DNA from: Anaerolineae bacterium
Lineage (GTDB): Bacteria > Chloroflexota > Anaerolineae > SpSt-313
Assembly: GCA_034428955.1 (NCBI GenBank)
Contig: DAOUGZ010000316.1
Span: forward strand, 285-64,284
Direction: 5' to 3'
DNA length: 64,000 nucleotides
Part shown: positions 25,701 to 52,192 of the stretch, piece by piece
Layout: every line of letters starts with the position of its first letter
Position numbering within the stretch: the stretch's first letter is position 1
The notes under the pieces: model-generated
Databases searched by the model: none
What the model was told of the DNA's origin: nothing
The model's input: only the letters and a program-made list of their open reading frames with translations
Position numbers and translations under genes: made by a program

Positions 25701-26507
25701 TCAGGATGAACGAGCACAGCCGGCCGTGCCGGAGAAACCCAGGCGCTCCGAGAGCTGCGCGGCGGCCCAGCGCACGATGCCACCCAGCTCGGCAAAGCGC
25801 TCGGGCGTGATGCGGCCCGACGGCCCCGAGATGCTGATGGCGGCGACGAGCTGGTCGTCGGCGTTCCACACTGGGCTGGCGATACAGCGCACCCCCAGCT
25901 CGCGCTCCTCGTCGTCGATGGCATAACCCCGTTGGCGGATCTCGGCCAGCTCGCTCCGCATGCGCAGTGGGTTGGTGATCGTATTCACGGTGTAAGCCGG
26001 CATCCCTTCCTCGATGACCCGCTCCAGCTCCTCCTCGGGCCAATAGGCGATCATGGCCTTGCCCACGGCAGTGCAGTGCAGCGGCGCCCAGGCGCCAAGC
26101 TGGGTAAACATGCCGAACGCACGCTGGGCGGGCGCCTGCGCCTGGGCAATGTAGATGACGCGATTGCCACTTGGGATGACCAGGTTGGCCACCTCACCAG
26201 TGCGATGTGCCAGCGCCTCCAATGTACCCATGGCCTCGTCGCGCAGGTCGTACTGCGCCTTGGCAGCCTCGCCGACGTGCAACAGGTGCAGGCCAAGGCG
26301 ATACACCTTGCTCTGACGGTCCTGTCGCACGTACCCCCGCCGAATCATCGTGGCCAGGATGCGGTGAACAGTCGACGTGTGCAGGCCAACACGCTCACAA
26401 AGCTCGGTCAAGGCCAGACCGTTCTTTTCCTCAGCCAGTGTATCGAGAAGGAGCAATGCGCGCTCCACTGATTGAATTGACCCCCGCTCCACCTTACTTG
26501 ATGACAT
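25701..26507 (-). CDS. IclR family transcriptional regulator
   Basis: N-terminal wHTH (SVERALLLLDTLAE...LTELCERVGLHTSTVHRIL) plus an IclR effector domain. The start is trimmed to M28 of the tracked ORF. Confidence 0.85.
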   Translation of the reverse strand: MSSSKVERGSIQSVERALLLLDTLAEEKNGLALTELCERVGLHTSTVHRILATMIRRGYVRQDRQSKVYRLGLHLLHVGEAAKAQYDLRDEAMGTLEALAHRTGEVANLVIPSGNRVIYIAQAQAPAQRAFGMFTQLGAWAPLHCTAVGKAMIAYWPEEELERVIEEGMPAYTVNTITNPLRMRSELAEIRQRGYAIDDEERELGVRCIASPVWNADDQLVAAISISGPSGRITPERFAELGGIVRWAAAQLSERLGFSGTAGCARSS

Positions 26508-26602
26508 GCGTTTGCCCTCTCTGCTGCGTCTATGAACATCCAGCACATCTATCACAGCTATTATACTTCTAGAAATCATTTTCCGCAATGTGGCAATATA
26601 CC

Positions 26603-36013: not shown

Positions 36014-36061
36014 CCCAACGAGGGGGGTGTGGGGGGCGCTGCCCCCCACACCCCTCCTACC

Positions 36062-36874
36062 TTAGGCAGGCTGGAGGACCACGGCCTCGCCGTGCTCGCC
36101 AATCCAATAGCGCAGGCCGGGGTACTTGACGTCCATGTAGGCGGCAAAGAGCTGCGGGTCCTCCGAGTTGTTGGAAAACATCTCATAGTGCCCCGGCACG
36201 GTCAGGCGTGGGCGGAGGGCGCCGGCCAGGTCTACCGCCTCTTGATAGGTCATGTTGCCGATGCAGTTTCGGGCATAGCGCTCGGCATCGCGGCCGTTGA
36301 TGGGCAGGAAGGCCAGGTCAAAGCGCCAGCGCGAGAGCTTGGCCAGCAACCCCTCGTACCAGACCGTATCGCCGGTGTGCAGGATGGTCACGCCGCCGGC
36401 CTCGACCACATAGCAGAGGTAAGGGTAGCCCAGCTCAGGGTCGCGGTCCAGGAACTCGTGGGCCGCGGCGACGGCGGTGATGCGCACCCCATCCTCTTCG
36501 TGCGTCAGGCCGTCGTCCAGGGCCACAATCCGCCCCTCAGGCACGCCCAACTCGCGCACGTGCGCACTGGCCACACGCGAGCAGACAAAGCGCGCCTGCG
36601 GCGAGGCGGCAGCAATGCCCGGCACGGCCACGGGGTCGATGTGGTCGAGATGGTCGTGGCTGCCCAGGACCCAGTCGGCGTGGGTCACCTCCTCCGGCGC
36701 GACCAGGGGCGGGACGTTGCGCCCGGCGTGCGGCATGAGGAAGGGATCGAAGTAGAGAACCTTGCCGGCGACCTTGACGATGTAGCTGAGCTGCCCCAGC
36801 CACCAAAAGGCGACGGCGCCCTCGGCCAAATCAAGGCCGTTAACGTCAGCGATGAGTGCCTTGCCTGTCTTCAT
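36062..36874 (-). CDS. MBL-fold metallo-hydrolase (UlaG-like lactonase/hydrolase superfamily)
   Basis: HxHxDH motif (GSHDHLDHID) and downstream His/Asp ligands. Trimmed to M26. Confidence 0.75.
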   Translation of the reverse strand: MKTGKALIADVNGLDLAEGAVAFWWLGQLSYIVKVAGKVLYFDPFLMPHAGRNVPPLVAPEEVTHADWVLGSHDHLDHIDPVAVPGIAAASPQARFVCSRVASAHVRELGVPEGRIVALDDGLTHEEDGVRITAVAAAHEFLDRDPELGYPYLCYVVEAGGVTILHTGDTVWYEGLLAKLSRWRFDLAFLPINGRDAERYARNCIGNMTYQEAVDLAGALRPRLTVPGHYEMFSNNSEDPQLFAAYMDVKYPGLRYWIGEHGEAVVLQPA

Positions 36875-36906
36875 GCTCCCTCCAGTCTTGGTCCGGCTGC
36901 CGGCGC

Positions 36907-37731
36907 TCAGCGTCCGGCCAGGATCTCGGCCGCGCGCCGGAAACCGCACTCGGCGCTGGTGAACACGGGTACGCCAAACTCGGCAGGCGAGTCGGGGTAC
37001 GAAAAGGCGAACACAGCCATGGAAAGCTGGGCCAGGACGACGCAGCCAATCTCCTCGCGGCTGAGGCAGGCGCGGATTCCCTCAGCCAGGGCCCGGTTAT
37101 GGCCCTGCACGTCGCCCACGGCCAGCCGCTGCCACGCCTCTTCGACGGTCAGGCCGCTAAAGGTGACCTCGCAGCCCATCTCCGCCGCCGCCTCTTGCAG
37201 GAGCGCCTGGGTGCTGGCCACCGTGGGGCCGTGGGTGGCGACGACGAGCACGCGCCCGCCGTGGGCCACCGCCCGCTCCATCATCGGCCGGTCGATCTGC
37301 AGGACGGGCACGCCATAGGGCGAGAGGGCTTGCTCCACCTGGGCGTAAGCCCGGTTCATCGTCGAGCAGGTAATGAGCACCGCGTCGACCTGGGCCAACT
37401 CGACCAGGTCCTTGGCATAGCGCACAAAGGCATCGATATTAGGCTGGGGCGGGCAGGGCAGCCCCTGCTCATGCGCGGCCATAAAGTTGAGCTGCACCGC
37501 CTCGTTGCCCACGTTGACCAGGTGCACCCCAGGCAGGTACAGCCGCCCGAAATAGTTGGCCCAAAGGGTGATCCACGACGAGCCGTTCAGCAGGCCCAGC
37601 CGTTTGCCCCGTAGGGGCAGGGCGACCTCGCTCCCACATTCCACGGGTTCGGGCCCCAGGTGCGCCACGCCGGTCACCCGTAGATAGCTGGCGAAAAGAT
37701 CGAAAGGGTTGATATCGGCCAAGTCCGTCAC
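36907..37731 (-). CDS. Asp/Glu/hydantoin racemase superfamily protein (putative isomerase/racemase/decarboxylase)
   Basis: Two-Cys architecture (ITCSTM ... second domain) reminiscent of maleate isomerase/AMDase-like folds. Assignment is tentative. Confidence 0.5.
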   Translation of the reverse strand: MTDLADINPFDLFASYLRVTGVAHLGPEPVECGSEVALPLRGKRLGLLNGSSWITLWANYFGRLYLPGVHLVNVGNEAVQLNFMAAHEQGLPCPPQPNIDAFVRYAKDLVELAQVDAVLITCSTMNRAYAQVEQALSPYGVPVLQIDRPMMERAVAHGGRVLVVATHGPTVASTQALLQEAAAEMGCEVTFSGLTVEEAWQRLAVGDVQGHNRALAEGIRACLSREEIGCVVLAQLSMAVFAFSYPDSPAEFGVPVFTSAECGFRRAAEILAGR

Positions 37732-38672
37732 CGCAGTGCCTCCCGTGCCTCGATGGCCTCGCGCGCCGCGGCGGCAATGTCTTCAGGCCGCAGGCGATAC
37801 TCGGCCAGCAACTCGGCGACTCCGCCGCTCTCGATGAAGCGATCCTGCACGCCGATGCGCCGCAGCACGGCCGGCGCCCGCTCGCCGAGGACCTCGGCCA
37901 CGGCGCTGCCCAACCCACCGATGACCGAGGCGTTCTCTGCCGTGACCACGGCGCCCGTCTTGCGGGCCGACTCAGCGATCAGGTCCTCATCAATGGGCTT
38001 GACCGAGCCGTAGTGCAACACATCCGCCCAAATGCCGTCGCGGGCCAAAAGGTCCGCCGCCTGCAAGCAAAAGCCCGTCATCATGCCGGTGCCGATGAGG
38101 GTCACGTCGGCCCCCTCGCGCAGCCGGTGGCCCCGCCCCCAGGCGAACTGATGGCCCTCGCCGAAAAGATCGGGCAGGGTGTAGCGGGTGACGCGGAAAT
38201 AGACCGGCCCCTCGGTCAGCACCGCCGCGCGCATCATGGAGCGCAGTTCCCAGTTGTCCCCCGGATCGGCCACGCGCATGTGGGGCATACCACGCATAAT
38301 GGCCATATCGGTGACGGCATTGTGCGAAGCGCCGGCCCGGCTGGTGGGGATGCCCACATAAGAGCCGGGGATCTTGACGTTCAGCTTGGGGTAGGCGATG
38401 CTGATCGACACCTGGTCCAACGCTCGCTTGGCCGCGAACACGGCAAAGGTGCAGGGGAAGGGAATGTACCCCTGCGTGGCCAGCCCGGCGGCGATGCCGA
38501 ACATGTTCTGCTCGGCGATGCCGCATTGGATAAAGCGAGCCGGAAAGGCCTGCTTAAAGTATACGGCCTTGCTGGAGGTGTGCAAATCCGCGTCGAGCAC
38601 GATAATATTGGGGAACTCGTGCCCCAGCTCGAGCAGGGTTTTGCCGAACACGTCGCGCATTTCCTCGGGCAT
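37728..38672 (-). CDS. Transketolase, C-terminal (pyrimidine-binding plus C-terminal domain) subunit of a split transketolase
   Basis: FIQCGIAEQNMFGIAAGLA and GASHNAVTDMA motifs. ATG 38672 after GGAGAATGAGAGG. Confidence 0.9.
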   Translation of the reverse strand: MPEEMRDVFGKTLLELGHEFPNIIVLDADLHTSSKAVYFKQAFPARFIQCGIAEQNMFGIAAGLATQGYIPFPCTFAVFAAKRALDQVSISIAYPKLNVKIPGSYVGIPTSRAGASHNAVTDMAIMRGMPHMRVADPGDNWELRSMMRAAVLTEGPVYFRVTRYTLPDLFGEGHQFAWGRGHRLREGADVTLIGTGMMTGFCLQAADLLARDGIWADVLHYGSVKPIDEDLIAESARKTGAVVTAENASVIGGLGSAVAEVLGERAPAVLRRIGVQDRFIESGGVAELLAEYRLRPEDIAAAAREAIEAREALR

Positions 38673-38682
38673 GGTCAGCCTC

Positions 38683-39594
38683 TCATTCTCCACCGTAGAA
38701 CTTTTCCTTGGCCACCGGGTCGTCGAGCTTGCTGTAGCCTTCCGCCGGCCGGCCATAGTTGCGAGCCAGGCGGCGCAGCATGGCATCGGCATCCTCCGGG
38801 TCCGGCGCCTGGGTGTGCCACTTGTAGTTGAACTCGGTCTGGCTCAGGCCCTTGCCCTTGACGGTGTGGGCGATGATCGCCACGGGGGCGCCGTGGACAC
38901 GCACGTGACGCGCCGCGTGCAGCGTCTGCAGCAGGGCTTCGATGTCGTGCCCGTCAACCTCCAGCACCTCCCAGCCAAAGGCCCGCCACTTGTCGGCAAA
39001 GGGCTCCAGGGTCATCTCCTCCCAGATAAAGCCCTTGGCCATGACCTTGTTATAGTCCACGATGGCGATGAGGTTATCCAGGTGATAGTGGGCCGCCGAC
39101 ATGGCCGCCTCCCACACCTGGCCCTCGTCGCACTCGCCGTCGCCCAGCAGGCAGTAGACGCGGTTGTAGGGCATCTCGCGGAAGCGAAAGCCCAGGGCCA
39201 TGCCCACGCTGATGGAGAGCCCCTGGCCCAGCGGCCCGCCGGAAGACTCGAGCCCGGGCGTGCGGGTCATGTCGGTGTGCCCCTCCAGGCGCCCGCCCAG
39301 CTCGCAGTAGGTATAGACCTCCTCCAGCGGGAAAAAGCCGCGCAGGGCCAGGGCGGCATAGAGGGCCGGCGAGGCGTGAGCCTTGGAGAGGACAAAGCGG
39401 TCCCGCTCCTCCCAGCGGGGGTTCTGCGGGTCCACCTGCAACTCGCGGAAGTAGAGGCAGGCCAAAAGCTCGGCAATGGAAAAGGCGCCGCCGACATGCC
39501 CCCAGCGGCCGTAGGTGATCATCTCCAGGCTCAACCGGCGGATCCGGTAGGCGATTTCCTCCAGCCGGTCAATCTCTTGGGGTTTGAGGCGCAT
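38683..39594 (-). CDS. Transketolase, N-terminal (TPP-binding) subunit of a split transketolase
   Basis: GHVGGAFS, CLLGDGECDEGQVWEAA, and TPP-binding GDG...N motifs. Confidence 0.9.
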   Translation of the reverse strand: MRLKPQEIDRLEEIAYRIRRLSLEMITYGRWGHVGGAFSIAELLACLYFRELQVDPQNPRWEERDRFVLSKAHASPALYAALALRGFFPLEEVYTYCELGGRLEGHTDMTRTPGLESSGGPLGQGLSISVGMALGFRFREMPYNRVYCLLGDGECDEGQVWEAAMSAAHYHLDNLIAIVDYNKVMAKGFIWEEMTLEPFADKWRAFGWEVLEVDGHDIEALLQTLHAARHVRVHGAPVAIIAHTVKGKGLSQTEFNYKWHTQAPDPEDADAMLRRLARNYGRPAEGYSKLDDPVAKEKFYGGE

Positions 39595-39629
39595 AGAGGC
39601 AGTCTCCTTTCAAGGAAGCGCTACCCGCG

Positions 39630-40380
39630 TCAAGGGCGAGGCGCACACGCCGCGGCAAACTCGGCACCGATGACGGTGTATCCCACCGTCTCCTCGAACC
39701 AGGCGACCCAGCGGGCGGTATTCTCCAGATTCGCCACGCTCTCCGGCGTCTCCCCGGCGAGGGTGCCGTCGCGCAGCCAGATGACGGTATAGTTGCGATA
39801 GAGGGCGTCGAGGGCGGTGGCGGCCAGGCAGACGTTGGCCCACAGCCCGGCACAGACCAGATTGCGCACCCCCAGGTTGCGCAGGGCCGTGTCCAGCCGG
39901 GTGTCGAAAAAGCCGCTGTAGACGTGCTTGCGAATGTAGGGCTCGCCCTCGCGCGGCGCCAGGCGGGGGGATATCTTGAGCGGCCCGGCAGGCCCGCCGT
40001 GGTATTCACGCGAGTCCACGCCGCCCTCGGCGAATGTGCGGTTAAAGGTGTCGGGCACACCATCGAGGCTCCAGCTACGGGCGAAATGGGCGCCAAAGGC
40101 CGAGCGTTCGAGCGCGATGCGCGGCGCGCTGTTCATGGCATAGAGCACCGGCAGGCCCACGGCGCGGGCCGCGTCGAGGGCCAGGGCGATGCGCCCCTCC
40201 ATGCGCTGCAGGTGAGGCACGAGGGGGTCCGCCGGGTCGCCCCAGTCGCCGCGTTTTTGGTCGTTGTAGTAGACGTCTACGAGGAGCAACCCCGTCTCCG
40301 AACGCGACAGGAGCAGGTCCTCGTGCCGCTCCTCTCCCGAGTGGGTGTAGCGGCCGCATAATGCGAGGGCTTTGCTCATC
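39630..40380 (-). CDS. Isochorismatase-family cysteine hydrolase
   Basis: LLLVDVYYND, VYSGFFDTRLDTALRNLGVRNLVCAGLWANVCL. ATG overlaps the upstream stop (TGATG). The tracked ORF has a spurious 210-codon N-terminal extension. Confidence 0.8.
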
Positions 40381-41515
40381 ACGCCTCCATCTTGCCCCAG
40401 ACCCGGCGTACGGTTTCGAGGTAGTACATATAGTTGTCGAGCGGGACGTCCGGCGGCACGCGATGATCGCAAAAGCCGATGTAGCCGCCCTCCTCCACCA
40501 AAGGCGCCAGGCGATAGACCTCTTGCTCGATCTCGCGCTTGCCCTGGGCCAGGATGTGCTTGTCGAACCCGCCCAGCATGAGCAGGTCCCGGCCGTACTC
40601 CTGGCGGTAGCGAACCGGGTCCGCGCCCCAGGTGCCGACCTCGACCGGGAAGAGGCCGTTGATGCCCGCTTCGAGCCACAGAGGGATGAGGGCGTCGATC
40701 TGGCCGTCGCAATCGATCCAGATGACCTCGACGCCATGCTTGCGGACCAGGTCGCTGATGCGGCGATAGTGGGGCACGAGATACCGCTTGACGTGCTGAG
40801 GGCTCAGAAGCGGCCCGCTGCTGTAGCACATGTCTTCCCACAGGGCGCAGGCGTCGAACTGACCACCCGTCTCCAGCACCCGGCCAAAGACGCCGATGAT
40901 GCAGTCGGCGACGGTGGTCACCATCTCTTCGAACCAGGCCGGGTCGTCGTACACGACCATCGAGAGCTTCTCGACGCCCATCCAGTTGCGCAGCCAGCCA
41001 TAGAGGCTGGCACAATACCGCCCACAGGGCAGGGCGATGACCTCATTGCGCTCGGGGTCGGCCCACAATCGGGTGCGCTCTTCCCAGTCTGGGGGGTAGC
41101 GGTCGGGGTGTGCCGGGTCCAGGCGGGGTTTGTAGTGCTTGCGCCAACTGTCGCGGTCCACCAGTTGGTGGCCGATGGGCATGGGGATAGTGCTGCCCAG
41201 CTTGCTGCGCAGCACGCGCACGCCATCCCACTGCTGGACGAGTTCGCGCTCGCCGCAATCCTCCAGCACGACCTCTTCAAAGGCCGGCATGAGGCCCACC
41301 TCAACGCCCGTCGCAGCCATGACCGCATCCAGGCCATAGTCCATGCCAAAGAAGGCGTCGCTGTTGGTCTTGTCGATGTGCGGCGGCAGGCCCTGCCCAT
41401 GCCAAACGGAGAGGGTCTCGCGCCAAAAGCCGAAATCGCAGATGGGCGCGCGGTCGCGCGGTTGGTAGCGCATGGTGGCCAGAAAACGCTCTCGGTCGGT
41501 CATCGGCCCGATCAT
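40379..41515 (-). CDS. Uroporphyrinogen decarboxylase (URO-D)-like family protein, paralog 1
   Basis: URO-D/MtaA-like TIM-barrel signature across the full length; 4-nt overlap with GH2. Confidence 0.85.
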   Translation of the reverse strand: MIGPMTDRERFLATMRYQPRDRAPICDFGFWRETLSVWHGQGLPPHIDKTNSDAFFGMDYGLDAVMAATGVEVGLMPAFEEVVLEDCGERELVQQWDGVRVLRSKLGSTIPMPIGHQLVDRDSWRKHYKPRLDPAHPDRYPPDWEERTRLWADPERNEVIALPCGRYCASLYGWLRNWMGVEKLSMVVYDDPAWFEEMVTTVADCIIGVFGRVLETGGQFDACALWEDMCYSSGPLLSPQHVKRYLVPHYRRISDLVRKHGVEVIWIDCDGQIDALIPLWLEAGINGLFPVEVGTWGADPVRYRQEYGRDLLMLGGFDKHILAQGKREIEQEVYRLAPLVEEGGYIGFCDHRVPPDVPLDNYMYYLETVRRVWGKMEA

Positions 41516-44337
41516 GGCAGCTCGCCTCCTTCGCCCGCGGCCAGGCGTACCAGGTTGCGCGCCAGGGTGGCGGCGATGGGGTTGGCCTGGGCCTGCTCAA
41601 AGATGCGGTACTGGCAAAAGATCAGCCGGCCCCGGCCACAGGGGATGGCCTCGATGTCGCTGTACCAGAGGATGGCGGAGGGCTCGCGCCGGGTCTGGGT
41701 GTTGCGCAGGGAACCGGCCAGGACCTCGCCGCCCAGCTCGGTCATGACGTACCAGGGCAGCACGTCCACATAGGCCTCGCCACCAAGCCCCTTCGGCAGC
41801 CCGGCAAAGAGGCCGGACTGGGGTTGCCAGTGGTAGCAGCCCATCCAATTGCCGATGCCGTAATGGAGCTGGAGCGGCACCCCCCGCTCCTGGAGGACGC
41901 GCCGGGCGAGTTCGTCGCGCGGATGCAGCGCGCCGATGATGCCGGTGCGCCCTTGCTCTACCTCGCCGAGCAGGCGCTGCCAGTCGCCCTCGCTGAGGGT
42001 CGCCGGCAGGGCAGCCAGCAACACGGGGCGCTCCCCAGGCGCGCTCGCCGCCCCGTCCGCCCAAGCCGCCGGAACGCTTCCGAGGCACTCCACACTCGCC
42101 GCCGCCCGGCTCAGGTCCGGCGGCACGAGCGCCAGGATGGCCTCAACGGACTCGGCCAGTACCTCCCCATCCCTGAGCAGGCGCGCGGATACCCGCCACT
42201 CCCCAGGCTCTTGGCCGGTCTCGACGGCGACGGCGCCCATCTCGCGGACGCCGGTGCCCGCCGGCGCGGCATAGCTCGTCTCGCGCTCGGCCCCCGAAGG
42301 GCTCTGCACGGTCACCCGTACCTCTTCCGCCCCCTGCAGCGGCTCGCGGCTGACCAGGGTCAGGGCCACCTCGATACGCTCGCCGCAAGCGGCCGCAGGC
42401 TTGGCCGCCTTGAGGATCAGGCACTGGGGCCGCTGGAGCCGCTTGAGCACCTCGTAGACCGGCTTGGGGTTGCGCCAGTGGTCGAGGAGGCCGGCGTGGA
42501 ACTCCCAGGCCACGTCATTGAGCTGGGTGACGATATACCCCGACACCCGTGGGTTGGCCAGGAGCGCCTCGACCTGGCGCTTGAGGCCGGCGGCCTGCAG
42601 TGCCTGCGAGGCGCGGACCAGCTCGCGCACGGAGGGGAAAACGCGGTCCAGGCGGCGCGCGGCAAAGCCCTGCTGCAGGCTGTCGCGGAAGGCCATCATC
42701 TCGCGGGCGTCGCGCAGGTCTTGGCGCCCCTGAAAGCCGGCAACGACCTGGTCCAGGTCGGCCATGCCGCCGCAGCCCAGCTCGGAGACAAAGACCTGGC
42801 CCCGGTAAGATGCCAGCCCTTGGGCCCACTTGTCCAGCATCGCCGGCGAGCCGAAATCGAGGGCCGCCATGTCTACCGGGGGCGGGCTGATGCCCAGGGT
42901 GCGCATCCACTCATACGCCTCTGAGGGGATGGGGGCGCCGATGTAGACGTGCAGGTCCTGGATCGGTTGGCGCTGCATCTCGCGGGAGGGGATAACGGTA
43001 GTGCGATCGGCCCAGCCGTAATCCTGATCGATGGCCATCGTGCCGCCCGAGTTGTCCAGCACCACACGCGTGGGGTCCAGGGCGCGGGCGAGGCGGGTGA
43101 GTTCGTCGCTGTTGAGGGCGTTGGCCGCCCGGTTCTCGTTGTTGATGCCCCAGATGACGACGGAGGGATGGTTGCGGTCGCGTTCGATCATCGCCCGCAG
43201 CTCGCGCCGGCCATGATCCAGCAGGCGCGGGCTGTCTTTGATCCAGGCCAGGCAGCTCTCGGCGTAGACCAGCATGCCCAGCTCATCGGCCAGGTCCAGG
43301 TAGCCCGGCGGCGCCGGCCGGATGTGAGCGCGGATCAGGTTGAACCCGGCCTCCTTGGCCAGGGTGATCTCGCGCACCATCATCTCGCGCGTCGGCGGAG
43401 TGACGATGGTGATTGGATAGTTAGGCTGCAGAAGCAGGCCCCGCAGCAGGATGGGCTCGCCGTTGAGGAAGAACCGGCCGTCGCGCACGGTGAAATCGCG
43501 CAGGCCAAAGCGCACCGTCCGGCTATCCACCTCGGCGCCGCCTCGCCGCAGCGCCAAGCGCAGGGTGTAGAGGTGCGGGTTGCGGCAATCCCAGAGCAGC
43601 GGGCGCGGCAGGGGGATGCGATAGGAGAAGGAAGACTCCCCCGGTGGCAGCACGACCTGAGAAGACTCTGTGGCGGCCAGGTCGCCGGAAGGCCCCTTCA
43701 CCTCCAGCCGCAGCACGGCACCTTGGCTCTCCTGGTCATAGTTCTCAAGGGCCGCCTCCACCCGCACCATCTCTTGGGCCGGGTCGGGCTCGACGGTCAC
43801 CGCTGTGCAAAAGGTGGTGGGCAAGGCCTCCAGGTAGACCTCTCCCCAGAGGCCGCCGTGGGTGTAATACCAGCTCTGCTTGGAGGCCGGCGACTGCTGC
43901 AGGACCATGCCGTCCACGTCCCAGGTCTTGGCCAGGCTCGCCACGCGCACTACCAGCTCGCTCTCCGCGCCGGGCCGGATGTGCGGCGTGACATCAAAGC
44001 CAAAGGGGGTGTAGGCACCCTCGTGGCTGCCCACATAGGCGCCATTGAGCCAAGCCTGGGTGCGATAGCTGGCGCCGCGAAAGTGCAGGCGCACCACGCG
44101 CCCCTGCCAATCCGCAGGAACGGTAAAGACGCGCCGGTAAAAGCCCACGCCCTCGGCATCGGGATGGGTAACGTTCCACAGAGCGGGCACCTGCACGCGC
44201 TCGGCGCGCGCCTCGGGCCAGTGGCCAAGCGCCCAGCCCGCGCGAATGCCCTCGCACGCCGGGTCGAAGGCCAGTTGCCACAGGCCGGCCAACTCCAGCC
44301 GTGGCCTGAAGCTGGGAAGGTCTATCGGGTGAGCCAT
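41512..44337 (-). CDS. Glycoside hydrolase family 2 (beta-galactosidase/beta-glucuronidase/beta-mannosidase-like) with an extended C-terminal region
   Basis: GH2 sugar-binding (WLNGAYVGSHEGAYTPFGFDVT), Ig-like and TIM-barrel (NHPSVVIWGINNEN) domains. ATG 44337 after GGAGAG. Confidence 0.85.
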   Translation of the reverse strand: MAHPIDLPSFRPRLELAGLWQLAFDPACEGIRAGWALGHWPEARAERVQVPALWNVTHPDAEGVGFYRRVFTVPADWQGRVVRLHFRGASYRTQAWLNGAYVGSHEGAYTPFGFDVTPHIRPGAESELVVRVASLAKTWDVDGMVLQQSPASKQSWYYTHGGLWGEVYLEALPTTFCTAVTVEPDPAQEMVRVEAALENYDQESQGAVLRLEVKGPSGDLAATESSQVVLPPGESSFSYRIPLPRPLLWDCRNPHLYTLRLALRRGGAEVDSRTVRFGLRDFTVRDGRFFLNGEPILLRGLLLQPNYPITIVTPPTREMMVREITLAKEAGFNLIRAHIRPAPPGYLDLADELGMLVYAESCLAWIKDSPRLLDHGRRELRAMIERDRNHPSVVIWGINNENRAANALNSDELTRLARALDPTRVVLDNSGGTMAIDQDYGWADRTTVIPSREMQRQPIQDLHVYIGAPIPSEAYEWMRTLGISPPPVDMAALDFGSPAMLDKWAQGLASYRGQVFVSELGCGGMADLDQVVAGFQGRQDLRDAREMMAFRDSLQQGFAARRLDRVFPSVRELVRASQALQAAGLKRQVEALLANPRVSGYIVTQLNDVAWEFHAGLLDHWRNPKPVYEVLKRLQRPQCLILKAAKPAAACGERIEVALTLVSREPLQGAEEVRVTVQSPSGAERETSYAAPAGTGVREMGAVAVETGQEPGEWRVSARLLRDGEVLAESVEAILALVPPDLSRAAASVECLGSVPAAWADGAASAPGERPVLLAALPATLSEGDWQRLLGEVEQGRTGIIGALHPRDELARRVLQERGVPLQLHYGIGNWMGCYHWQPQSGLFAGLPKGLGGEAYVDVLPWYVMTELGGEVLAGSLRNTQTRREPSAILWYSDIEAIPCGRGRLIFCQYRIFEQAQANPIAATLARNLVRLAAGEGGELP

Positions 44338-44347
44338 GTCTCTCCTA

Positions 44348-45802
44348 TCACTGCTCAAAGGGATGCTTCCTCTCGATTCGGAAGGTGAAGGCGTGTTCGC
44401 AGGGTTTTTTGCCGGGGGTGCGGATGACGAGGCCATCCGGCGCGAACGTCCAGGGCAGTTCCTCGTCAACGCCAAGCATCCTCACCGAGCTAATCTCCGA
44501 CGGGTACAGCTCCTGGGCCGGCGTCCGGACGACCAGCGCATCGCCCGGCCAGCCCAGGCAAATAGCATAGAGCGTGTCATCTCTAGCGGTAAAGCGGATG
44601 TCTTCCGCGGTGTAGCGGATGTCCTGGTCCTCACAGAACGGCCCGCTCTTGACCATCCGGCTGGGTCCCTCGCCATAGACCATCCAGGGGGTCGTGCCGT
44701 AGATGGCCTCGCCATTGACCTCGAGCCAGCGGCCGATGGCCAAAAGGAGGTCCCGGGCCGGCTCTGGGATCTCGCCGTTGGGTTTGGGCCCCACGTTGAG
44801 GAGCATGTAGCCGTTCTTGCTCACATTGTCTACCAGGTAATGCACCAGCACGCTCGCCGGCTTGTAGGCCGTGTCTTTCAGGTAGCTCCACCCACGCCCG
44901 TCGTCTACCGTCGTGTCGGTGATCCAGTCTTGGTAGGTCAGGTCCGGGAAGCGCCCCAGCTCGAGGTCGACGACGGCACAGCCGGGAACCAGAGTGTGCC
45001 ACTTGTAGGTCACGACCACTTCCTGGCCCCACTGTGCGGCTCTGTTGTAGTAGTAGGCCAGGAGCTCTTTTTTGTAATGCTCCTGGATGTGCTCAATGCC
45101 ATGGTCGAACCAGAGCATGTCCGGACGGTACTTGTCGATGACCTCCTGCGCTTTGCCCAGCCAGAGGTCGAGGAACGCCTTGCTGGGCCGGTCTTGCAGT
45201 GCCCAGAGATCGTCCCTTGAATGGGTGAGGTACATGCCTGCTGCCCACTCTCGATTGTGCAGCTCACCGTAAAGCCCGGCGTAGCGCGGGTCGGAGGTAT
45301 CGAACTCGTGCCGCCAGTGGGGGTAGTACCACCAGTTCTCGGCGTGGTGCAGGGCCACCATAAAGCGCAAGCCCGCCCGGCGCACGGCTCGCTCCAGCTC
45401 GCCGACGACGTCTCGCTTCGGCCCCATGCGCGCGGCGTTCCAGGCGTTGAGTTGGCTATTCCACATAGCAAAGCCGTCGTGATGCTCGCCCACAGGGCCG
45501 GCAAAGCGGGCGCCGGCCCGCTTGAACAGATCGGCCCACTCGTCGGGGTCGAACCGCTCGGCCGTGAACATGGGGATAAAATCCTTGTAGCCGAACTCGG
45601 AGACGGGACCATAGGTCTCGACGTGATGCTTGTGCTGTGGCGAGCCCTCACGATACATGAAGTAGGGGTACCAGGTGGCATTAGGCCCGCACGCCGGAAC
45701 CGAGTAAATCCCCCAGTGGGTATAGATGCCGAATTTGGCGTCTCTGAACCACTGGGGCGTCTGGTGCGCTCTGAGCGAGTTCCAGGATGGCTTGTAGGTC
45801 AA
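44348..45802 (-). CDS. Alpha-L-fucosidase, glycoside hydrolase family 29
   Basis: QWFRDAKFGIYTHWGIYSVP, HHDGFAMWNS and YHAENWWYYPHW motifs typical of GH29. TTG start after GGAGGA. Confidence 0.9.
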   Translation of the reverse strand: MTYKPSWNSLRAHQTPQWFRDAKFGIYTHWGIYSVPACGPNATWYPYFMYREGSPQHKHHVETYGPVSEFGYKDFIPMFTAERFDPDEWADLFKRAGARFAGPVGEHHDGFAMWNSQLNAWNAARMGPKRDVVGELERAVRRAGLRFMVALHHAENWWYYPHWRHEFDTSDPRYAGLYGELHNREWAAGMYLTHSRDDLWALQDRPSKAFLDLWLGKAQEVIDKYRPDMLWFDHGIEHIQEHYKKELLAYYYNRAAQWGQEVVVTYKWHTLVPGCAVVDLELGRFPDLTYQDWITDTTVDDGRGWSYLKDTAYKPASVLVHYLVDNVSKNGYMLLNVGPKPNGEIPEPARDLLLAIGRWLEVNGEAIYGTTPWMVYGEGPSRMVKSGPFCEDQDIRYTAEDIRFTARDDTLYAICLGWPGDALVVRTPAQELYPSEISSVRMLGVDEELPWTFAPDGLVIRTPGKKPCEHAFTFRIERKHPFEQ

Positions 45803-45811
45803 GGTCTTTGT

Positions 45812-45880
45812 CCTCCGCCTTCGGAGGTTTAGGGGGTAAACTGTCGCCGCCCGCGGGCGGCGACAGTTTACCCCCTAAAC
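45812..45880. repeat. Short hairpin (CCTCCG cctt CGGAGG) followed by a 54-bp perfect palindrome (27-bp arms, no loop) inside the operon between the Gfo/Idh/MocA and GH29 genes
   Basis: GTTTAGGGGGTAAACTGTCGCCGCCCG | CGGGCGGCGACAGTTTACCCCCTAAAC at 45827-45880, confirmed base by base. Confidence 0.7.
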
Positions 45881-45912
45881 CCCTATCCCAGCCTGGGCCG
45901 GGTAGCGCATAC

Positions 45913-46920
45913 TCATGCATCCAAGGGAATGTCCACCGGGGCGCCAAGCTCGGCGGAGCGAGCGGCCGCCAGGGCCAGGCGCAGCGAGCGATAGCCCTCT
46001 TCGATGGGGGCGACGGTGGGGCGGTCGCCGCGGATGGCGGCCAGGAGGTCGAGCGTCTCGGCCAGGTAGACGTCTTCCTCGCTGGCGATGCGCTGCGGGG
46101 GGCTGTCGCCGGCGGTATCGTAGAGCGTGCCCACATTCGCATCAGCGAGATCGGCGGTGAGGCCGGCCAGGCAGACGCGGACGTCGTTATCCCAACGGTT
46201 CGGGATGGCACCGTTGGTCGCGGCCACGACAGCCAGGCCGCCGGAGGCAAATTGGATGACCGTGCCGCTGGCATCCTCGACGGTATAGCCGGGAACGTCC
46301 CGGTGAAAGAGGTTGCCCTGCGCCGAATAGACCCGAACCGGCTCGCCCAGGAGGAAGCGAGTCAGGTCCAGCAGGTGGATGACCTGCTCCACCAGTTGGC
46401 CGCCGCTCTTGCTGCGGTCGCGCCACCAGGGCCGGTGCAGCGCATTGCAAAAGTAGCGGGCGGTGATAAAGCCCACCGGGTTCGTTCCCAGTTCGCGCAT
46501 GTATTGCCGCACCCGGCGAACGGCCTCCCCGTGGCGCCACATAAAGCCCACCTGGCTCTTCACGCCGCTCCGGCGGGTCGCCTCGACCATGCCGGCGGCC
46601 AGTTCCAGGGTCAGCGCGATCGGCTTTTCGATGAGGTAATGGACCCCATGCCGGCAGGCCAGCTCGACCTCGTTGCCGTGGGCAAAGGGCGGCAGGCAGA
46701 TGTAGACCAGGTCCAGGTCCAGCTCTTCGAACATGCGCCGGCTATCGGTATAGACCTGCGCCCGGCCGGCGGCGAACGCTTCGTTAAAGGCCTCGGCCTG
46801 GCCGCGCACCTCGTCGCAAAAGCCGACGAGGTCGATGCACTCCAGCGCCGCCAGGTGGGCGGCATGTTGCTTGCGGGCAAAGTGCCCGCAGCCGATCAGT
46901 CCGGTTCGCAAGGGTCTCAT
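45913..46920 (-). CDS. Gfo/Idh/MocA family NAD(P)-dependent oxidoreductase
   Basis: GLIGCGHFARKQH Rossmann N-terminus and an EKP catalytic motif. Confidence 0.9.
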   Translation of the reverse strand: MRPLRTGLIGCGHFARKQHAAHLAALECIDLVGFCDEVRGQAEAFNEAFAAGRAQVYTDSRRMFEELDLDLVYICLPPFAHGNEVELACRHGVHYLIEKPIALTLELAAGMVEATRRSGVKSQVGFMWRHGEAVRRVRQYMRELGTNPVGFITARYFCNALHRPWWRDRSKSGGQLVEQVIHLLDLTRFLLGEPVRVYSAQGNLFHRDVPGYTVEDASGTVIQFASGGLAVVAATNGAIPNRWDNDVRVCLAGLTADLADANVGTLYDTAGDSPPQRIASEEDVYLAETLDLLAAIRGDRPTVAPIEEGYRSLRLALAAARSAELGAPVDIPLDA

Positions 46921-46930
46921 GGCTTCTACC

Positions 46931-47980
46931 TCATTCCGTATAGGTCAGGACCATCTTGACCCGGTCTCCAGGCTGCAGGTCGAGCAGGGCATAGGCCTCG
47001 GCGGCGCGCTCGAAGGGGACACGCGCCCCGATCAGCGGCCGGACCTGTAGCCTGCCCTGTTCGAGGAGGCGAACCGCCGTGTGCTCGAGGCGAAGCAGGT
47101 CCCACATCGGCTGGCAGCGATGCGAGCACTCCCAAACGGGCATGCTGGAGCGCAGAGTCACCCGGTTGTGGTGCCACTCCGCCGCCAGATCGAGCCGGCC
47201 CTTCTGGTCGCCGTAAAAGCTGACGGTGACGACGAGCCCCTCTTTATGCACCGCACGCACCGCCTGCTGCAGGGCGGTGTATACCCCCGAGATTTCCAGC
47301 GCCACGTCGACGCCCTCGCCGGCCGTGGCCTCTTTGATCGTGAGGCCCGCGTCGTCCTCGGCGGGGTTCACCGTCAGGTCCGCGCCCAGTTGCCGGGCCA
47401 GGGCCAGGCGCCCGGGGACGGGGTCAACGGCCGCGATCCACTCGGCGCCGTTGAGCCGGGCCATCTGCAGCGCCAGCATGCCGATCGCCCCCAAGCCAAA
47501 GACGGCCACCCGGTCTCCGAGCTTGATGGCCGCATCGTGAATGCCGCCCAGGGCGAAACGGGCCGGGTCGGTGAAGAGCATCGTCTCCTCGTCGGCCTGG
47601 TTCGCGACGGGGTAGAGGTTCGCCTCGGGCATGAGCACCGTCTGGCGATGCTTCCATTCCCCGTGCACGCGGTCACCAGGCTTGAAGCGGCGCACGTCGG
47701 GCCCCACACGAGTGACGACACCCGCCGCCCACGAGCCCATCTGGTGCGGGAAGTACGGCTTGATGCACTCATCCTCTCGCGGAGGCCTGAAGAGGCGGAG
47801 GGTGGGGTCCCACAGGCGATCGCCAAAGGGCACAACGCCCCGGTAGGTGTTTAGTTCCGTGCCGTGCTTGATGCCGCTCACGGTCGTGCGAATGTGGACC
47901 TCGTCGCCGCTGGGCTCCCGGTCCTCATACTCCTGGTAACCGATGGTCTTGGGCGCTGTCACGACAAGTTCGAGAGGCAT
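46931..47980 (-). CDS. Medium-chain dehydrogenase/reductase (zinc-type alcohol/polyol dehydrogenase-like)
   Basis: GroES-like N-domain and a GLGAIG Rossmann motif. Confidence 0.8.
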   Translation of the reverse strand: MPLELVVTAPKTIGYQEYEDREPSGDEVHIRTTVSGIKHGTELNTYRGVVPFGDRLWDPTLRLFRPPREDECIKPYFPHQMGSWAAGVVTRVGPDVRRFKPGDRVHGEWKHRQTVLMPEANLYPVANQADEETMLFTDPARFALGGIHDAAIKLGDRVAVFGLGAIGMLALQMARLNGAEWIAAVDPVPGRLALARQLGADLTVNPAEDDAGLTIKEATAGEGVDVALEISGVYTALQQAVRAVHKEGLVVTVSFYGDQKGRLDLAAEWHHNRVTLRSSMPVWECSHRCQPMWDLLRLEHTAVRLLEQGRLQVRPLIGARVPFERAAEAYALLDLQPGDRVKMVLTYTE

Positions 47981-48101
47981 GGTTGCTCCTTCTGATTATT
48001 GCATTGGCTCTGGCGCTGGGCCCCACGGATATTTGCCGGCATCGTGGCACCACCCGCGACGGGCCTTGCCCGCCAGAGTCTCAGGCACGATGGGTTATCC
48101 A

Positions 48102-49103
48102 TCATTCAGCGGAGAGTGCTGCTCTTCGCCAGGGGTCTGCTTGCCGGAATGCCTCCAGCATGATGCCCTTCCTCTCCAGGGCCACGCCAATCGCAGTCCC
48201 ATCGCCATAGTCGGAGAGGATAAAGCCCCCCGCAGGAACGGCCCACTGCTGCAGCAAGAGCCGGGCTTCCTCGCGTATCTCGTCGTCGCCTGCGAACGGC
48301 AGCGTATGCTGAATGTCGCAGAGGGACTCGAAGCAGATGCGCCCCCGAAACCGCCGGCCCATCTCCTCGATGCCGAGCACGCGGGGCTGCTGCAGGTTGA
48401 TGACGTCCAGGCCGATTTCGATGAGGCTATCCAGGATGGCATCGACCTTGCCGCAGGAGTGCATCCACACATGCCAGCCCTGCCGGTGGATCGCGTCAAA
48501 GATGCGCTTGTAGCGTGGCTTGAAGAACTCGTCCCAGAGGGCCGGGCTGACGAAAAGCGCCTGCTCGCTGCCCCAATCATCCGTGAACGAGAAACCGTGG
48601 ATGCGGCGCCCAAACCGGCGCCCGATGTTCTCGATAATGCCCAGGTCGAACTCGACAATACGGTCGGCGAGCGCCTCGGCGGCCTCCCGCTCCAGACGCA
48701 GATCGACAAGCGTGTTCTCAAAGCCGCGCAGAGCATGCATGCGCTCAAAGAGCAGCATAAAAATGCCCGTCAGCACATACTGGCCGTCCGAGCCGGCAAA
48801 GCGCTCTTCCATGCCCCGGTAGAACGCCGGCGAGTCGGCATCGGGCCAGCGGAAATGGGCCATGTCTTGCCGGTCGGCCAGCGGATGGCCTTTCACCTGC
48901 CCCATGTTGCCCATCTCGGAGCGCACCCACAGGCAGCCCCATTCATCGACCGTGCGCCGCAAGCGCTTGTCGCCCGTGCCTGTCTGGTTCCAGGCCACGG
49001 TGTGGGTATCGCTCAGCCCCAGCGCCTCAAAGCGCAGAGGCAACCTATCCGGCACGCCGAACTCGATAGCGCGGCGCACAACCTCCAGGCCAGACATCGC
49101 CAT
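48102..49103 (-). CDS. URO-D-like family protein, paralog 2
   Basis: URO-D-like fold (...FSFTDDWGSEQALFVSP..., HSCGKV...). Confidence 0.85.
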   Translation of the reverse strand: MAMSGLEVVRRAIEFGVPDRLPLRFEALGLSDTHTVAWNQTGTGDKRLRRTVDEWGCLWVRSEMGNMGQVKGHPLADRQDMAHFRWPDADSPAFYRGMEERFAGSDGQYVLTGIFMLLFERMHALRGFENTLVDLRLEREAAEALADRIVEFDLGIIENIGRRFGRRIHGFSFTDDWGSEQALFVSPALWDEFFKPRYKRIFDAIHRQGWHVWMHSCGKVDAILDSLIEIGLDVINLQQPRVLGIEEMGRRFRGRICFESLCDIQHTLPFAGDDEIREEARLLLQQWAVPAGGFILSDYGDGTAIGVALERKGIMLEAFRQADPWRRAALSAE

Positions 49104-49114
49104 CAGGCACCCCT

Positions 49115-50269
49115 CTACTTTTCAACGGAGTGAAATGCCTCATAGACCCGCCACAGGGGCTCGACGCGCGCCGGCAGCGGCAGATGGGCCGGGAGCGGCC
49201 GGGCGCTTTGGTGGAGCGCCGCGTCGATCAGGGCGACGGCGTTCTCCGGCGGGACGTCCGGCAGGATGGCCTTGGCGGGGCTAAAGACGTAGCCGCCGCC
49301 GCGCCCCAGGTAGCGCAGGCAGGCCTCGGCCTCGCAGCGCACCTCCTCGGCAGTCCCGCGCGGCAGCGTATGCTGCGAGCTGACGCCGCCGTTCAGGCAA
49401 AGCGCGTGGCCGTAGCGACGCTTGATCTCCAGCATATCCATCGCTTCCGGCTGCAGCGGGTTGAGGATCTGGACGCCGATATCGATCAGGTCGGGCACGA
49501 TCTCGGTGACATCCCCGCAGGTGTGGACCATGACCACCATGCCTTTAGCCCGCACCCGCTCAAAAATGCGCCCGGCCCTGGGCTTGATGAGCTTGCGCCA
49601 GCGCTCCGGCCCCATGAGCAGGCCGCGCTGGGCACCCCAGTCGTCACCAAAGCGAAACCCGTCAAAGGGGTAGCCGGCGATGCGCTCGACAAGGCGCAGG
49701 TGCAGCTCCGTCAGAGCCTCCAACAGCTCCTCGGCAAAGACGGGATGCAGGACCATATCGGTCAGGAAGGCTTCCATCCCGCGCAAGGCCCAGCAGCGGT
49801 CAAAGAGGCCGTGCGCGTCGCCACACAGAACAAAGCGGTCCCCGTGTTCCGCCAGGAACTCGCCGGCGCCGTGGAAGTAGCTCTCCTCACACAGGTCGGG
49901 GAACTCGTACCCCCGCAACGAGGGCTCTTTTAGCGGGGAATCCTCCAGGTGCGGCGCATGGCCTGCCCGCCAGGTGCAGCCAAAGGCATCCACATAGCGG
50001 TCCGGGCCAAGCGGGCGCCGCGCCGCCTCGATGTGGAAGAAGGGCAGGTGGTTGACGATGCGCCCGGCCAGGTCGCGCCCCTCGGGGAGTTGAGTGAGCT
50101 TGTCCAGAGCGGCATCGTCGATGCGGATATCGTAGGGGACAATGTCCGACTCCTGCCCGGCCAGCGCCCTCAGCACACGCTCCTTGGGCGTCAGCCGCGC
50201 CGGCAGCCCATCCCGCTTGCCGCCCAACCGCTCGCCTCTGTTGCAGGGGATAGGTCTTTCTTCGCTCAC
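49115..50269 (-). CDS. URO-D-like family protein, paralog 3
   Basis: URO-D-like fold (FRFGDDWGAQRGLLMGP, HTCGDV). GTG start overlaps the permease stop (GTGA). The tracked ORF has a spurious 170-codon extension that runs antisense through the permease gene. Confidence 0.8.
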   Translation of the reverse strand: MSEERPIPCNRGERLGGKRDGLPARLTPKERVLRALAGQESDIVPYDIRIDDAALDKLTQLPEGRDLAGRIVNHLPFFHIEAARRPLGPDRYVDAFGCTWRAGHAPHLEDSPLKEPSLRGYEFPDLCEESYFHGAGEFLAEHGDRFVLCGDAHGLFDRCWALRGMEAFLTDMVLHPVFAEELLEALTELHLRLVERIAGYPFDGFRFGDDWGAQRGLLMGPERWRKLIKPRAGRIFERVRAKGMVVMVHTCGDVTEIVPDLIDIGVQILNPLQPEAMDMLEIKRRYGHALCLNGGVSSQHTLPRGTAEEVRCEAEACLRYLGRGGGYVFSPAKAILPDVPPENAVALIDAALHQSARPLPAHLPLPARVEPLWRVYEAFHSVEK

Positions 50270-51144: not shown

Positions 51145-51160
51145 CGCTTTCCCCATTTCC

Positions 51161-52081: not shown

Positions 52082-52192
52082 CACCCCCCGTTCCGCCGGC
52101 CATGACCCTGGGTAGGGGTTTGGCGGGTTGGTTGGCCTGGCCGCCCTGCGGGCGGCCAGGCCAACCAACCCGCCAAACCCTCAGATCAACAA

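Follow-up and report, generated by a model that had tools for sequence, protein, structure and literature searches.

The question raised by this locus is whether a transketolase encoded by two adjacent genes, close to the end of a sugar-utilization operon, serves general pentose-phosphate metabolism or is dedicated to a degradative pathway of its own. The genes lie in a 64,000 nt stretch of DNA (GC ~65%) from contig DAOUGZ010000316.1 of an Anaerolineae bacterium belonging to the Chloroflexota (assembly GCA_034428955.1), the whole of which is hereafter called the window. Our analysis indicates that the two genes, termed here TK-N and TK-C, define a distinct, uncharacterized transketolase subfamily predicted to have a non-canonical acceptor pocket, and that this subfamily is genetically locked to a gene for a protein with the Asp/Glu/hydantoin racemase fold. 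We lean slightly towards the reading that these genes belong to an undescribed route for degrading a small anionic, most likely carboxylated, sugar by dedicated C2 transfer, organized like sulfoglycolysis; any particular substrate assignment would be doubtful at best. The genes at the center of the argument are the following:

40379..39630, minus strand: isochorismatase-like hydrolase (PF00857, 2.2e-24), upstream of TK-N
39594..38683, minus strand: TK-N, the thiamine diphosphate (ThDP)-binding transketolase subunit, 303 aa (Pfam Transketolase_N PF00456, 5.5e-50)
38672..37728, minus strand: TK-C, the Pyr plus C-terminal transketolase subunit, 314 aa (Transket_pyr PF02779, 5.5e-34; Transketolase_C PF02780, 1.1e-30), with the altered pocket motif GSYVGIPTSRAGASHN
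37731..36907, minus strand: racemase-fold gene (Asp/Glu/hydantoin type), 274 aa (PF01177, 1.1e-14)

TK-N terminates in a TGA at 38685-38683 and is separated from the ATG start codon of TK-C at 38672 by a spacer of 10 nt (GAGGCTGACC), which holds an AGAGG-like ribosome-binding site. Both genes are intact reading frames and, together with the frames of the isochorismatase-like and racemase-fold genes, they are backed by a third-position GC of 0.84-0.88. On the upstream side the ATG of the isochorismatase-like gene overlaps the stop of a uroporphyrinogen decarboxylase-like (URO-D-like) gene by 1 nt; in NCBIfam its product matches RutB and biuret amidohydrolase weakly. On the downstream side the racemase-fold gene opens with a GTG at 37731, in a 4 nt overlap with the stop of TK-C, because of which these two genes are likely to be translationally coupled. 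A scan of 35800-40500 for promoters and terminators gave no signal above background, and the window contains no full-length tkt gene. The first-pass annotation of the window had described a two-gene transketolase with a 10 nt gap, flanked by isochorismatase-like and racemase-fold genes, and the reading frames and Pfam matches agree with this description in every detail.

In searches of the PDB the best match of TK-N was 6YAK chain A, the N component of the split transketolase of Carboxydothermus hydrogenoformans (E=4e-85), and that of TK-C was 6YAJ (E=2e-90), with human transketolase next in both cases. Since this crystallized split enzyme is the best match for both subunits, the split architecture is a known and functional form and is ordinary when considered alone. 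The weight placed on it by the first-pass annotation was hence misplaced, as 6YAK/6YAJ, AptAB and SqwGH are all split. Like the window pair, the Carboxydothermus enzyme comprises an N subunit of ~300 aa and a C subunit of ~315 aa with its ThDP, Glu and His machinery unchanged; the two enzymes share 50-60% identity, and the Carboxydothermus one is biochemically active. TK-N contains the ThDP/metal-binding motif GDG...N (GDGECDEG...NLIAIVDYN), and alignment to 4KXU/6RJB and 6YAK showed that it keeps the His equivalents of human H37/H77/H110/H258. TK-C retains the equivalent of the bacterial H473 (H117), the cofactor-activating Glu (E54 in GIAEQN, aligned to human E366) and three phosphate ligands, namely R6, S33 and R163, which correspond to human R318, S345 and R474. 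With this complement of residues TK-N and TK-C are predicted to encode a catalytically complete heteromeric ThDP-dependent transketolase.

The substrate pocket is where the subfamily departs from the canonical enzymes. The fourth phosphate ligand, a His in the latter (human H416, E. coli H461), is replaced by Tyr105 across the subfamily, leaving the canonical Arg/Ser/His/Arg set incomplete. Likewise, the Asp represented by human D424 and E. coli D469 is replaced by Ala113, Ala occupying this position in all 47 loci of the subfamily and in almost every one of the 120 closest homologs. The role of this Asp in transketolases is to form a hydrogen bond with the acceptor's C2-hydroxyl, equivalent to the C4-hydroxyl of the donor. 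The motif in which these changes are embedded, KIPGSYxGxPTSRAGASHN, is kept, bar single substitutions, in 120/120 closest homologs (down to 65% identity) and in 47/47 loci; the corresponding segment of canonical split transketolases, including that of Carboxydothermus, reads ATHxGxTxGEDGxxHQ. When 41 members of the subfamily were compared with five canonical sequences for fixed differences, further changes emerged in TK-N beside each catalytic His, i.e. S to W31, G to A72, Q to E104, P to T107 and G to T261. The pocket of the Carboxydothermus enzyme is thus canonical (ATHAGLTVGEDGASHQ), while that of the window enzyme combines GSYVGIPTSRAGASHN with W31, A72, T107 and T261 of TK-N. In addition, R112 of TK-C (38337-38339) stands where human transketolase has E423, and this change from E to R co-varies with that of R/K to C97/E98 in TK-N (39301-39306). 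Among these replacements we regard Y105 and A113 as secure pocket changes on the basis of the alignments. It was the first-pass annotation that had proposed comparing the substrate-channel residues with those of canonical transketolases, and this comparison, once run, yielded the His to Tyr105 and Asp to Ala113 replacements as properties of the whole subfamily.

Split transketolases beyond this subfamily are themselves diverse. At least seven pocket-motif types were seen among the split TK-C proteins of loci L042-L086 (e.g. GSYGGIPTGKAGATHQ, GAYSGILTGKTGKTHQ, ATHAGLSFGQAGSTHH and GSDPGVxAEANGGTHMP); most of these types are without the canonical Asp and occur in differing catabolic contexts, and most have no assigned function. 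One of these loci, L065, encodes two divergent split-transketolase pairs back to back. The GSDPGV-type enzymes of L065 and L082 were considered as a comparator for the sulfo-transketolases and dropped, given the two transketolase pairs of L065 and its lack of a sulfo context. The sister subfamilies with motifs of the Y...TGKAG types have other gene neighbors, namely aldehyde dehydrogenases, xylose-isomerase-like TIM barrel proteins and CoA transferases.

Contextual information was gathered from 47 loci with a TK-C of at least 56% identity, recovered by looking up exact proteins and by a single scan of the genomes of species representatives. Most of these loci come from metagenome-assembled genomes with short contigs, and 27 of them, drawn from Chloroflexota, Bacteroidota and Spirochaetota, have at least 5 kb on either side (the full-flank loci). 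A homolog of the racemase-fold gene is found within 6 kb of TK-C in 26 of the 27 full-flank loci, and within 500 bp in 20. A kinase of the DUF1537 (four-carbon acid-sugar kinase) family is present in 13 full-flank loci (23/47 overall, counting the displaced copy of the window), a GntR/FCD regulator is likewise present in 13, and an isochorismatase-like homolog in nine. An importer, of the anion-type MFS or the ABC class, mostly goes with the unit as well. These partners are absent from loci in which TK-C identity is 53% or lower. In Bacteroidota the genes form a compact six-gene unit comprised of the kinase, GntR, TK-N, TK-C, a major facilitator superfamily (MFS) transporter and the racemase-fold gene, and the MFS proteins of the cassette are closest to the D-galactonate-transporter subfamily of the anion:cation symporters (ACS; 156-171 bits). 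Among relatives with long flanks the closest is L004 (GCA_054602755.1, ~80% identical), with the order zinc-dependent alcohol dehydrogenase (Zn-ADH), GFO, GH2, URO-D, isochorismatase, TK-N, TK-C, racemase-fold gene and kinase, and the operon arrangement of the window is collinear with that of L004 and L088. In metagenomes the subfamily is abundant, with over 100 TK-C clusters at 65% identity or more, and the linked racemase-fold protein forms ~1,500 clusters (at 90% identity).

Further scrutiny of the 47 loci uncovered accessory genes with patterns of their own. A transaldolase-family gene occurs in seven loci and the DUF1537 kinase in 23, never together, and a PF01116 class II ketose-bisphosphate aldolase occurs in five loci, every one of them with the kinase. 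Genes for apiosidase-like PF13204 proteins are found beside the cassette in L030 (298 bits), L032, L037 and L002, the last of which also has an ApnL-like lactonase; such neighbors are seen in 3/27 full-flank loci and none is present in the window. In L032 (6171-8456) the apiosidase-like PF13204 domain is part of a 761-aa fusion protein with a CN_hydrolase domain (a nitrilase-superfamily amidase), whose gene adjoins a compact transketolase cassette. More generally, genes of the amidohydrolase type (isochorismatase, CN_hydrolase, PIG-L) are repeatedly found around the cassette.

The transketolase-racemase unit is also encountered in unrelated genomes without glycoside hydrolase (GH) genes (L013, L021 and L087). 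The first-pass annotation had tied the pair to its sugar-degradation operon; this recurrence weakens the tie to this particular GH operon while strengthening the case for pathway specificity. Among the sugar-operon neighbors to which it had drawn attention, the racemase-fold gene is indeed conserved, but the glycosidases and the isochorismatase are not the conserved partners, these being the racemase-fold gene, the DUF1537 kinase, the GntR/FCD regulator and the anion-type MFS transporter. The GH2/GFO/Zn-ADH module is confined to Anaerolineae-type loci, and the embedding among glycosidases is specific to Anaerolineae. The window transketolase, unlike the Carboxydothermus enzyme, sits in a conserved catabolic cassette.

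These observations bear directly on the opening question. An ordinary housekeeping transketolase, split by chance and located at the end of a sugar operon where it balances pentose-phosphate flux, would be compatible with the retention of all cofactor-binding and catalytic residues and of three of the four phosphate ligands, as well as with the 50-60% identity to the biochemically active Carboxydothermus enzyme. However, the subfamily has lost a His and an Asp that are conserved in canonical transketolases whether split or not, its linkage to the racemase-fold gene, with GntR, transporter and kinase genes, is near-obligate across phyla, and the operons are inducible and catabolic in context, being under LacI or GntR control. 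Because two canonical pocket residues are replaced and the synteny with genes outside the pentose-phosphate pathway is conserved across phyla, a housekeeping role for the enzyme appears very unlikely, and chance splitting of such a gene is among the least credible explanations of the locus. The proposal of the first-pass annotation that this is a pathway-specific transketolase is accordingly borne out, both by the pocket changes and by the cross-phylum synteny.

To what chemistry might this near-obligate partner contribute? By sequence the racemase-fold protein gave no informative match in the PDB (best E 0.02). Its AlphaFold2 model, built with 32 homologs, has a predicted local distance difference test (pLDDT) score of 94 and displays the two-domain racemase fold, the best Foldseek matches being Asp/Glu/hydantoin racemases (template-modeling score ~0.6, 14-22% identity). 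The first catalytic Cys of these enzymes is kept as C122 in an invariant CSTMN motif, and the position of the second is occupied by Gln235 in an invariant LAQLSM motif, leaving the Cys pair of the two-base mechanism incomplete. With Gln235 at the second Cys position, the protein represents a single-Cys branch of the superfamily, for which classical two-base racemization is not expected. By analogy, one-base chemistry is more likely, such as isomerization by 1,2-proton transfer, epimerization at an activated carbon, or decarboxylation with stereospecific protonation; single-Cys members of the racemase fold include known decarboxylases, e.g. arylmalonate decarboxylase (AMDase). Another residue, Cys262, is invariant in the narrow family alone. 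A library-wide search of 1.84 billion sequences recovered ~30 representatives at E<=1e-30, along with a broad set of uncharacterized ~220-aa proteins that share the CST, IDRPM and LAQxSM motifs and lack Cys262. NCBIfam searches with the distant relatives gave no annotation.

The kinase of the cassette, together with a regulator gene, is found in the window at some distance from the transketolase:

25623..24214, minus strand: DUF1537 kinase (four-carbon acid-sugar kinase family; Pfam SBD_N 6e-57, NBD_C 2e-36)
26588..25701, minus strand: IclR regulator, upstream of the DUF1537 kinase

This kinase lies 12 kb from TK-C and is 72% identical to that of L004. As the kinase gene of L004 follows the racemase-fold gene there, the window kinase is best regarded as the displaced ortholog of the cassette kinase, with a metallo-beta-lactamase (MBL)-fold gene occupying its place. 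It is a divergent member of its family, scoring 59 bits against the NCBIfam D-threonate kinase model (cutoff 450) and 34 bits against that for 3-oxo-tetronate kinase (cutoff 350), with no match in the PDB at E<1e-3. The known substrates of DUF1537 kinases are reportedly all acid sugars. With the described DUF1537 pathways (OtnK/OtnC, DtnK, OiaK) the cassette shares the SBD_N and NBD_C domains, an acid-sugar context, an anion transporter and carboxylate-type regulators; unlike them it has no PdxA2, OtnI, OtnC or RuBisCO-like partner, and a transketolase partner of DUF1537 pathways was not described in the literature searched. In the window the kinase is part of a minus-strand run (17405-26588) that encodes the IclR regulator, the kinase, a TauE/SafE exporter, a D-serine-dehydratase-like pyridoxal phosphate enzyme and the glycine cleavage proteins T, H, P1 and P2; the run may point to a tie with C2 or serine metabolism, or may be coincidental.

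The remaining features of the window that bear on the interpretation are these:

54806..53799, minus strand: LacI regulator, heading the operon region (Pfam)
~53629..36062, minus strand: the operon, with the transketolase pair close to its end (Pfam)
53629..40379, minus strand: the part of the operon upstream of the isochorismatase-like gene, from the gene for a substrate-binding protein (SBP) at 52193-53629 to the third URO-D-like gene; its GH29 is an alpha-L-fucosidase (Pfam)
36062..36949, minus strand: UlaG-like MBL-fold hydrolase, the final gene of the operon (Lactamase_B_2, 2.4e-20)
26664-36013, plus strand: converging operon with genes for an SBP, two permeases, an 885-aa protein, a PF12831 flavoprotein and a Gcl-like ThDP enzyme

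The genes of the minus-strand operon follow the order LacI, SBP, two permeases, two URO-D-like, Zn-ADH, GFO/IDH/MocA, GH29, GH2, URO-D-like, isochorismatase-like, TK-N, TK-C, racemase-fold and MBL. The MBL gene occurs in one of the 27 full-flank loci, i.e. the window alone, and its product scores 49.6 bits against the NCBIfam L-ascorbate-6-phosphate lactonase model, under the cutoff of 306. The PDB matches of the GH2 protein are a mix of beta-glucuronidase, galactofuranosidase and galactosidases, and do not indicate a single specificity. We also considered the GFO/IDH/MocA protein as a NAD-dependent sulfoquinovosidase, which proved uninformative: its best PDB match is DgpA, with SqgA weaker. 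The three URO-D-like (PF01208) genes of this one glycan operon (40379-41515, 48102-49103 and 49115-50779, minus strand) have no corrinoid-binding protein beside them; in related loci (L001, L003 and L088) such genes adjoin homologs of MTTB-family methyltransferases. They may constitute a module for sugar O-demethylation.

In the converging operon the 885-aa open reading frame (30128-32785, plus strand) has no Pfam domain and no PDB match, and shows a 48-bit NCBIfam match to alpha-D-galacturonidase (GH138-like); the gene for the PF12831 FAD oxidoreductase follows it. The Gcl-like ThDP enzyme (34343-36013, plus strand) reaches 698.6 bits against NCBIfam glyoxylate carboligase, whose cutoff is 791, and matches 2PAN/8BEO in the PDB (E 5e-158). 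Its ARHEEGA segment corresponds to ARHVEGA of E. coli Gcl, so that it keeps the canonical catalytic Glu that is absent from Gcl. We set this gene aside as evidence for glyoxylate metabolism because its score is below the cutoff, the canonical Glu is present in its product and the gene does not travel with the cassette.

What, then, could the dedicated transketolase act upon? The ACS-type MFS transporter, the GntR/FCD regulator and the DUF1537 kinase belong to families that point to an anionic, probably carboxylated, substrate. The 6-deoxy-ketoses suggested by the first-pass annotation find no support. With the Asp gone, the donor should lack the C4-hydroxyl of usual donors, which amounts to an acceptor lacking a C2-hydroxyl. 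Ketols that fit this loss are those whose following carbon is a carboxylate, as in 3-oxo-tetronate, which would give glyoxylate; those with a deoxy position there; and those with a tertiary branched carbon there, as in apulose-4-phosphate. In turn, the alternation of the transaldolase with the kinase and class II aldolase suggests that a dihydroxyacetone-headed ketose arises too, which could leave either through C3 transfer or through phosphorylation with subsequent aldol cleavage.

On these grounds the route we slightly favor may be outlined as follows. An importer of the anion-type MFS or ABC class would take up the small anionic sugar. The transketolase would then remove a glycolaldehyde unit from a ketol lacking the usual D-threo C4-hydroxyl, candidates being a keto-uronate or a 2-hydroxy-3-oxo acid akin to 3-oxo-tetronate, and would hand this C2 unit to glyceraldehyde-3-phosphate, giving xylulose-5-phosphate and setting free an aldehyde-acid, e.g. 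glyoxylate or a tetruronate. At a carbon alpha to a carboxylate or carbonyl, the racemase-fold enzyme would supply the correct ketol by epimerization or by aldehyde-to-ketol isomerization, in the position held by SqwI in sulfoglycolysis. What is left, an intermediate headed by dihydroxyacetone, would be turned into triose or hexose phosphates by the kinase with the aldolase, or else by the transaldolase. In the window this cassette would have been inserted at the end of a LacI-controlled glycan-utilization operon, with its kinase displaced by 12 kb to a place beside IclR. A more specific version, which we offer tentatively as a "carboxy-analog of sulfoglycolysis" and hold to be rather less probable than not, is that a keto-uronate, 3-oxo-tetronate or branched apionate-type acid would be dismantled by iterative C2 transfer to glyceraldehyde-3-phosphate, with the single-Cys enzyme regenerating the ketol, and with kinase plus aldolase or transaldolase as interchangeable exits.

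The comparison with sulfoglycolysis rests on gene organization. In sulfo-transketolase (sulfo-TK) clusters the genes for SqwG and SqwH are followed by that for SqwI, an isomerase that turns the aldehyde product into the next ketol, and transaldolases are co-located, while the sulfo-EMP2 pathway combines a kinase with a PF01116 aldolase (PMC11659671, PMC9594981). SqwGH is thus a split transketolase acting on an anionic ketose with an isomerase gene directly downstream, to which the racemase-fold gene is the analog in the cassette. As to organization, the sulfo-TK analogy drawn by the first-pass annotation has held, in that the transketolase pair precedes an isomerase-type gene and a transaldolase or a kinase with PF01116 aldolase appear as alternatives. 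A sulfo-TK-type pathway proper, in which a SqwGH-like enzyme degrades a sulfonated sugar, would share this logic with the sulfo-TK, sulfo-TAL and sulfo-EMP2 clusters, and could draw on the TauE/SafE exporter gene that adjoins the kinase in the window, the sulfatases of L001 and L003, and the moderate similarity of the GFO/IDH/MocA protein to the structures of NAD-dependent sulfoquinovosidase (8QC2/8QC3, 1.6e-13). Yet the best PDB match of that protein is DgpA rather than SqgA, and conservation of the cassette does not extend to TauE. SqwI is a member of the RpiB family, PF02502 (PMC11659671, PMC9594981), and neither an RpiB-type SqwI nor a sulfoquinovosidase (YihQ/GH31), a sulfoquinovose isomerase (SqvD/YihS), a sulfoacetaldehyde reductase, a PF00465 SqwF or SqwD/KL was found in the window, in annotated related loci or at any locus examined. 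Moreover, sulfofructose (SF) transketolases have the pocket RAFDR instead of RSFHR (PMC11659671), against which the window enzyme presents, at the four positions mapped, R6, S33, Y105 and R163, with the Ser kept and Tyr rather than Asp at the His position. Membership of the SqwGH group was hence rejected, as RAFDR is not matched, the partner has the racemase fold and is not of the RpiB family, and genes for sulfoquinovose are lacking; a sulfonated substrate is accordingly a very improbable one.

A further parallel is offered by AptA/AptB, the apulose-4-phosphate transketolase of D-apiose degradation I (E. coli SE15 ECSF_RS02710/02715), which is likewise a pathway-dedicated split transketolase clustered with an isomerase and a kinase. 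This raises the possibility of a non-orthologous D-apiose route, in which the racemase-fold enzyme would isomerize D-apiose to D-apulose, the DUF1537 kinase would form apulose-4-phosphate, and the split transketolase would convert the latter with glyceraldehyde-3-phosphate to dihydroxyacetone phosphate (DHAP) and xylulose-5-phosphate. The cassette holds exactly the three enzyme types needed (isomerase-like, kinase and transketolase) with no redox step; apulose-4-phosphate has no C4-hydroxyl, consistent with the Asp to Ala change; AptB (GLNAGASYGPLASTHH) has likewise lost the His and Asp equivalents; and the PF13204 genes adjoining the cassette in L030, L032, L037 and L002, with the ApnL-like lactonase of L002, also speak for such a scheme. 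Nevertheless, the replacements in AptB differ from those of the window enzyme (N...PL as against Y...RA), and AptB is without the equivalents of R6 and R163, which are remodeled there and both kept in TK-C. Orthology to AptAB was in fact rejected, as identity to E. coli SE15 AptA/AptB (39%/33%) falls below that to canonical split transketolases and the pocket differs. The validated E. coli cluster has the FGGY kinase AplK (PMC13001218), short-chain dehydrogenase/reductase genes and a sugar-binding-type regulator, in place of the DUF1537 kinase and racemase-fold gene of the cassette. Apiose is, furthermore, a neutral sugar, whereas the ACS transporter, GntR/FCD regulator and kinase family indicate an anionic substrate, and the PF13204 neighbors are found neither in the window nor in most loci (3/27). 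On balance we consider a D-apiose route improbable.

Improbable too, to a similar degree, is an assimilatory pathway running in the opposite direction, in which the transketolase would add a C2 unit from xylulose-5-phosphate or fructose-6-phosphate to glyoxylate, giving 3-oxo-tetronate; an OtnK-like kinase and then decarboxylation by the single-Cys enzyme would yield DHAP, and in loci without the kinase the product would be dihydroxyacetone, captured by a transaldolase or an enzyme of the FSA (fructose-6-phosphate aldolase) type. Such a scheme uses every module in one linear order and accounts for the kinase (with a class II fructose-bisphosphate aldolase) and the transaldolase as alternatives. 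3-Oxo-tetronate is of a substrate class known for DUF1537 (the NCBIfam OxoTetrKin match being weak), single-Cys decarboxylases of the racemase fold such as AMDase are known, and the carboxylate of glyoxylate sits where canonical acceptors have the C2-hydroxyl read by the Asp. The Gcl-like ThDP enzyme, IclR and the glycine-cleavage genes are also nearby in the window. Against this, the Gcl-like gene is no constant companion of the cassette, its product has Glu where E. coli Gcl has Val, no glycolate oxidase was seen, the kinase scores far under the OtnK cutoff, and the frequent settings among glycosidases and SusC/D genes are odd for a C2 compound.

Several points also weigh against the degradative C2-transfer route that we slightly favor. 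As the E to R112 change co-varies with that of R/K to C97/E98 in TK-N, R112 may be half of a swapped inter-subunit salt bridge rather than a new ligand for a carboxylate or phosphate. The racemase-fold protein could instead be an epimerase, an isomerase or a decarboxylase. No member of the transketolase subfamily or of the racemase-fold family is characterized, and the substrate is deduced from family-level associations; the literature search likewise gave no paper linking these genes. The mutual exclusion of kinase and transaldolase (hypergeometric P ~0.0055 among the 47 loci) carries a probability that ignores phylogenetic non-independence and truncated contigs. The compact cassettes are without a dehydrogenase, which implies that the imported compound must already bear a carbonyl, and the apiosidase-like and ApnL-like neighbors, seen in five loci, fit a branched apiose- or apionate-type sugar better than a linear uronate.

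Pathway-dedicated split transketolases are already known; the literature searched has no description of the present transketolase subfamily, of its single-Cys partner or of their link to a divergent DUF1537 kinase. AptAB, SqwGH and DesAB were each a dedicated transketolase that revealed a new catabolic pathway. Were the route to prove a carboxy-analog of sulfoglycolysis, it would provide the first functions for three uncharacterized protein subfamilies in Chloroflexota, Bacteroidota and Spirochaetota. The substrate, once identified, would extend the known chemistry of the DUF1537 kinases and of the Asp/Glu-racemase fold, and would supply a transketolase with relaxed demands on the C4-hydroxyl and stereochemistry, of interest for biocatalysis. 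It would also explain how uncultured Anaerolineae and Bacteroidota dispose of the acidic sugars of complex glycans.

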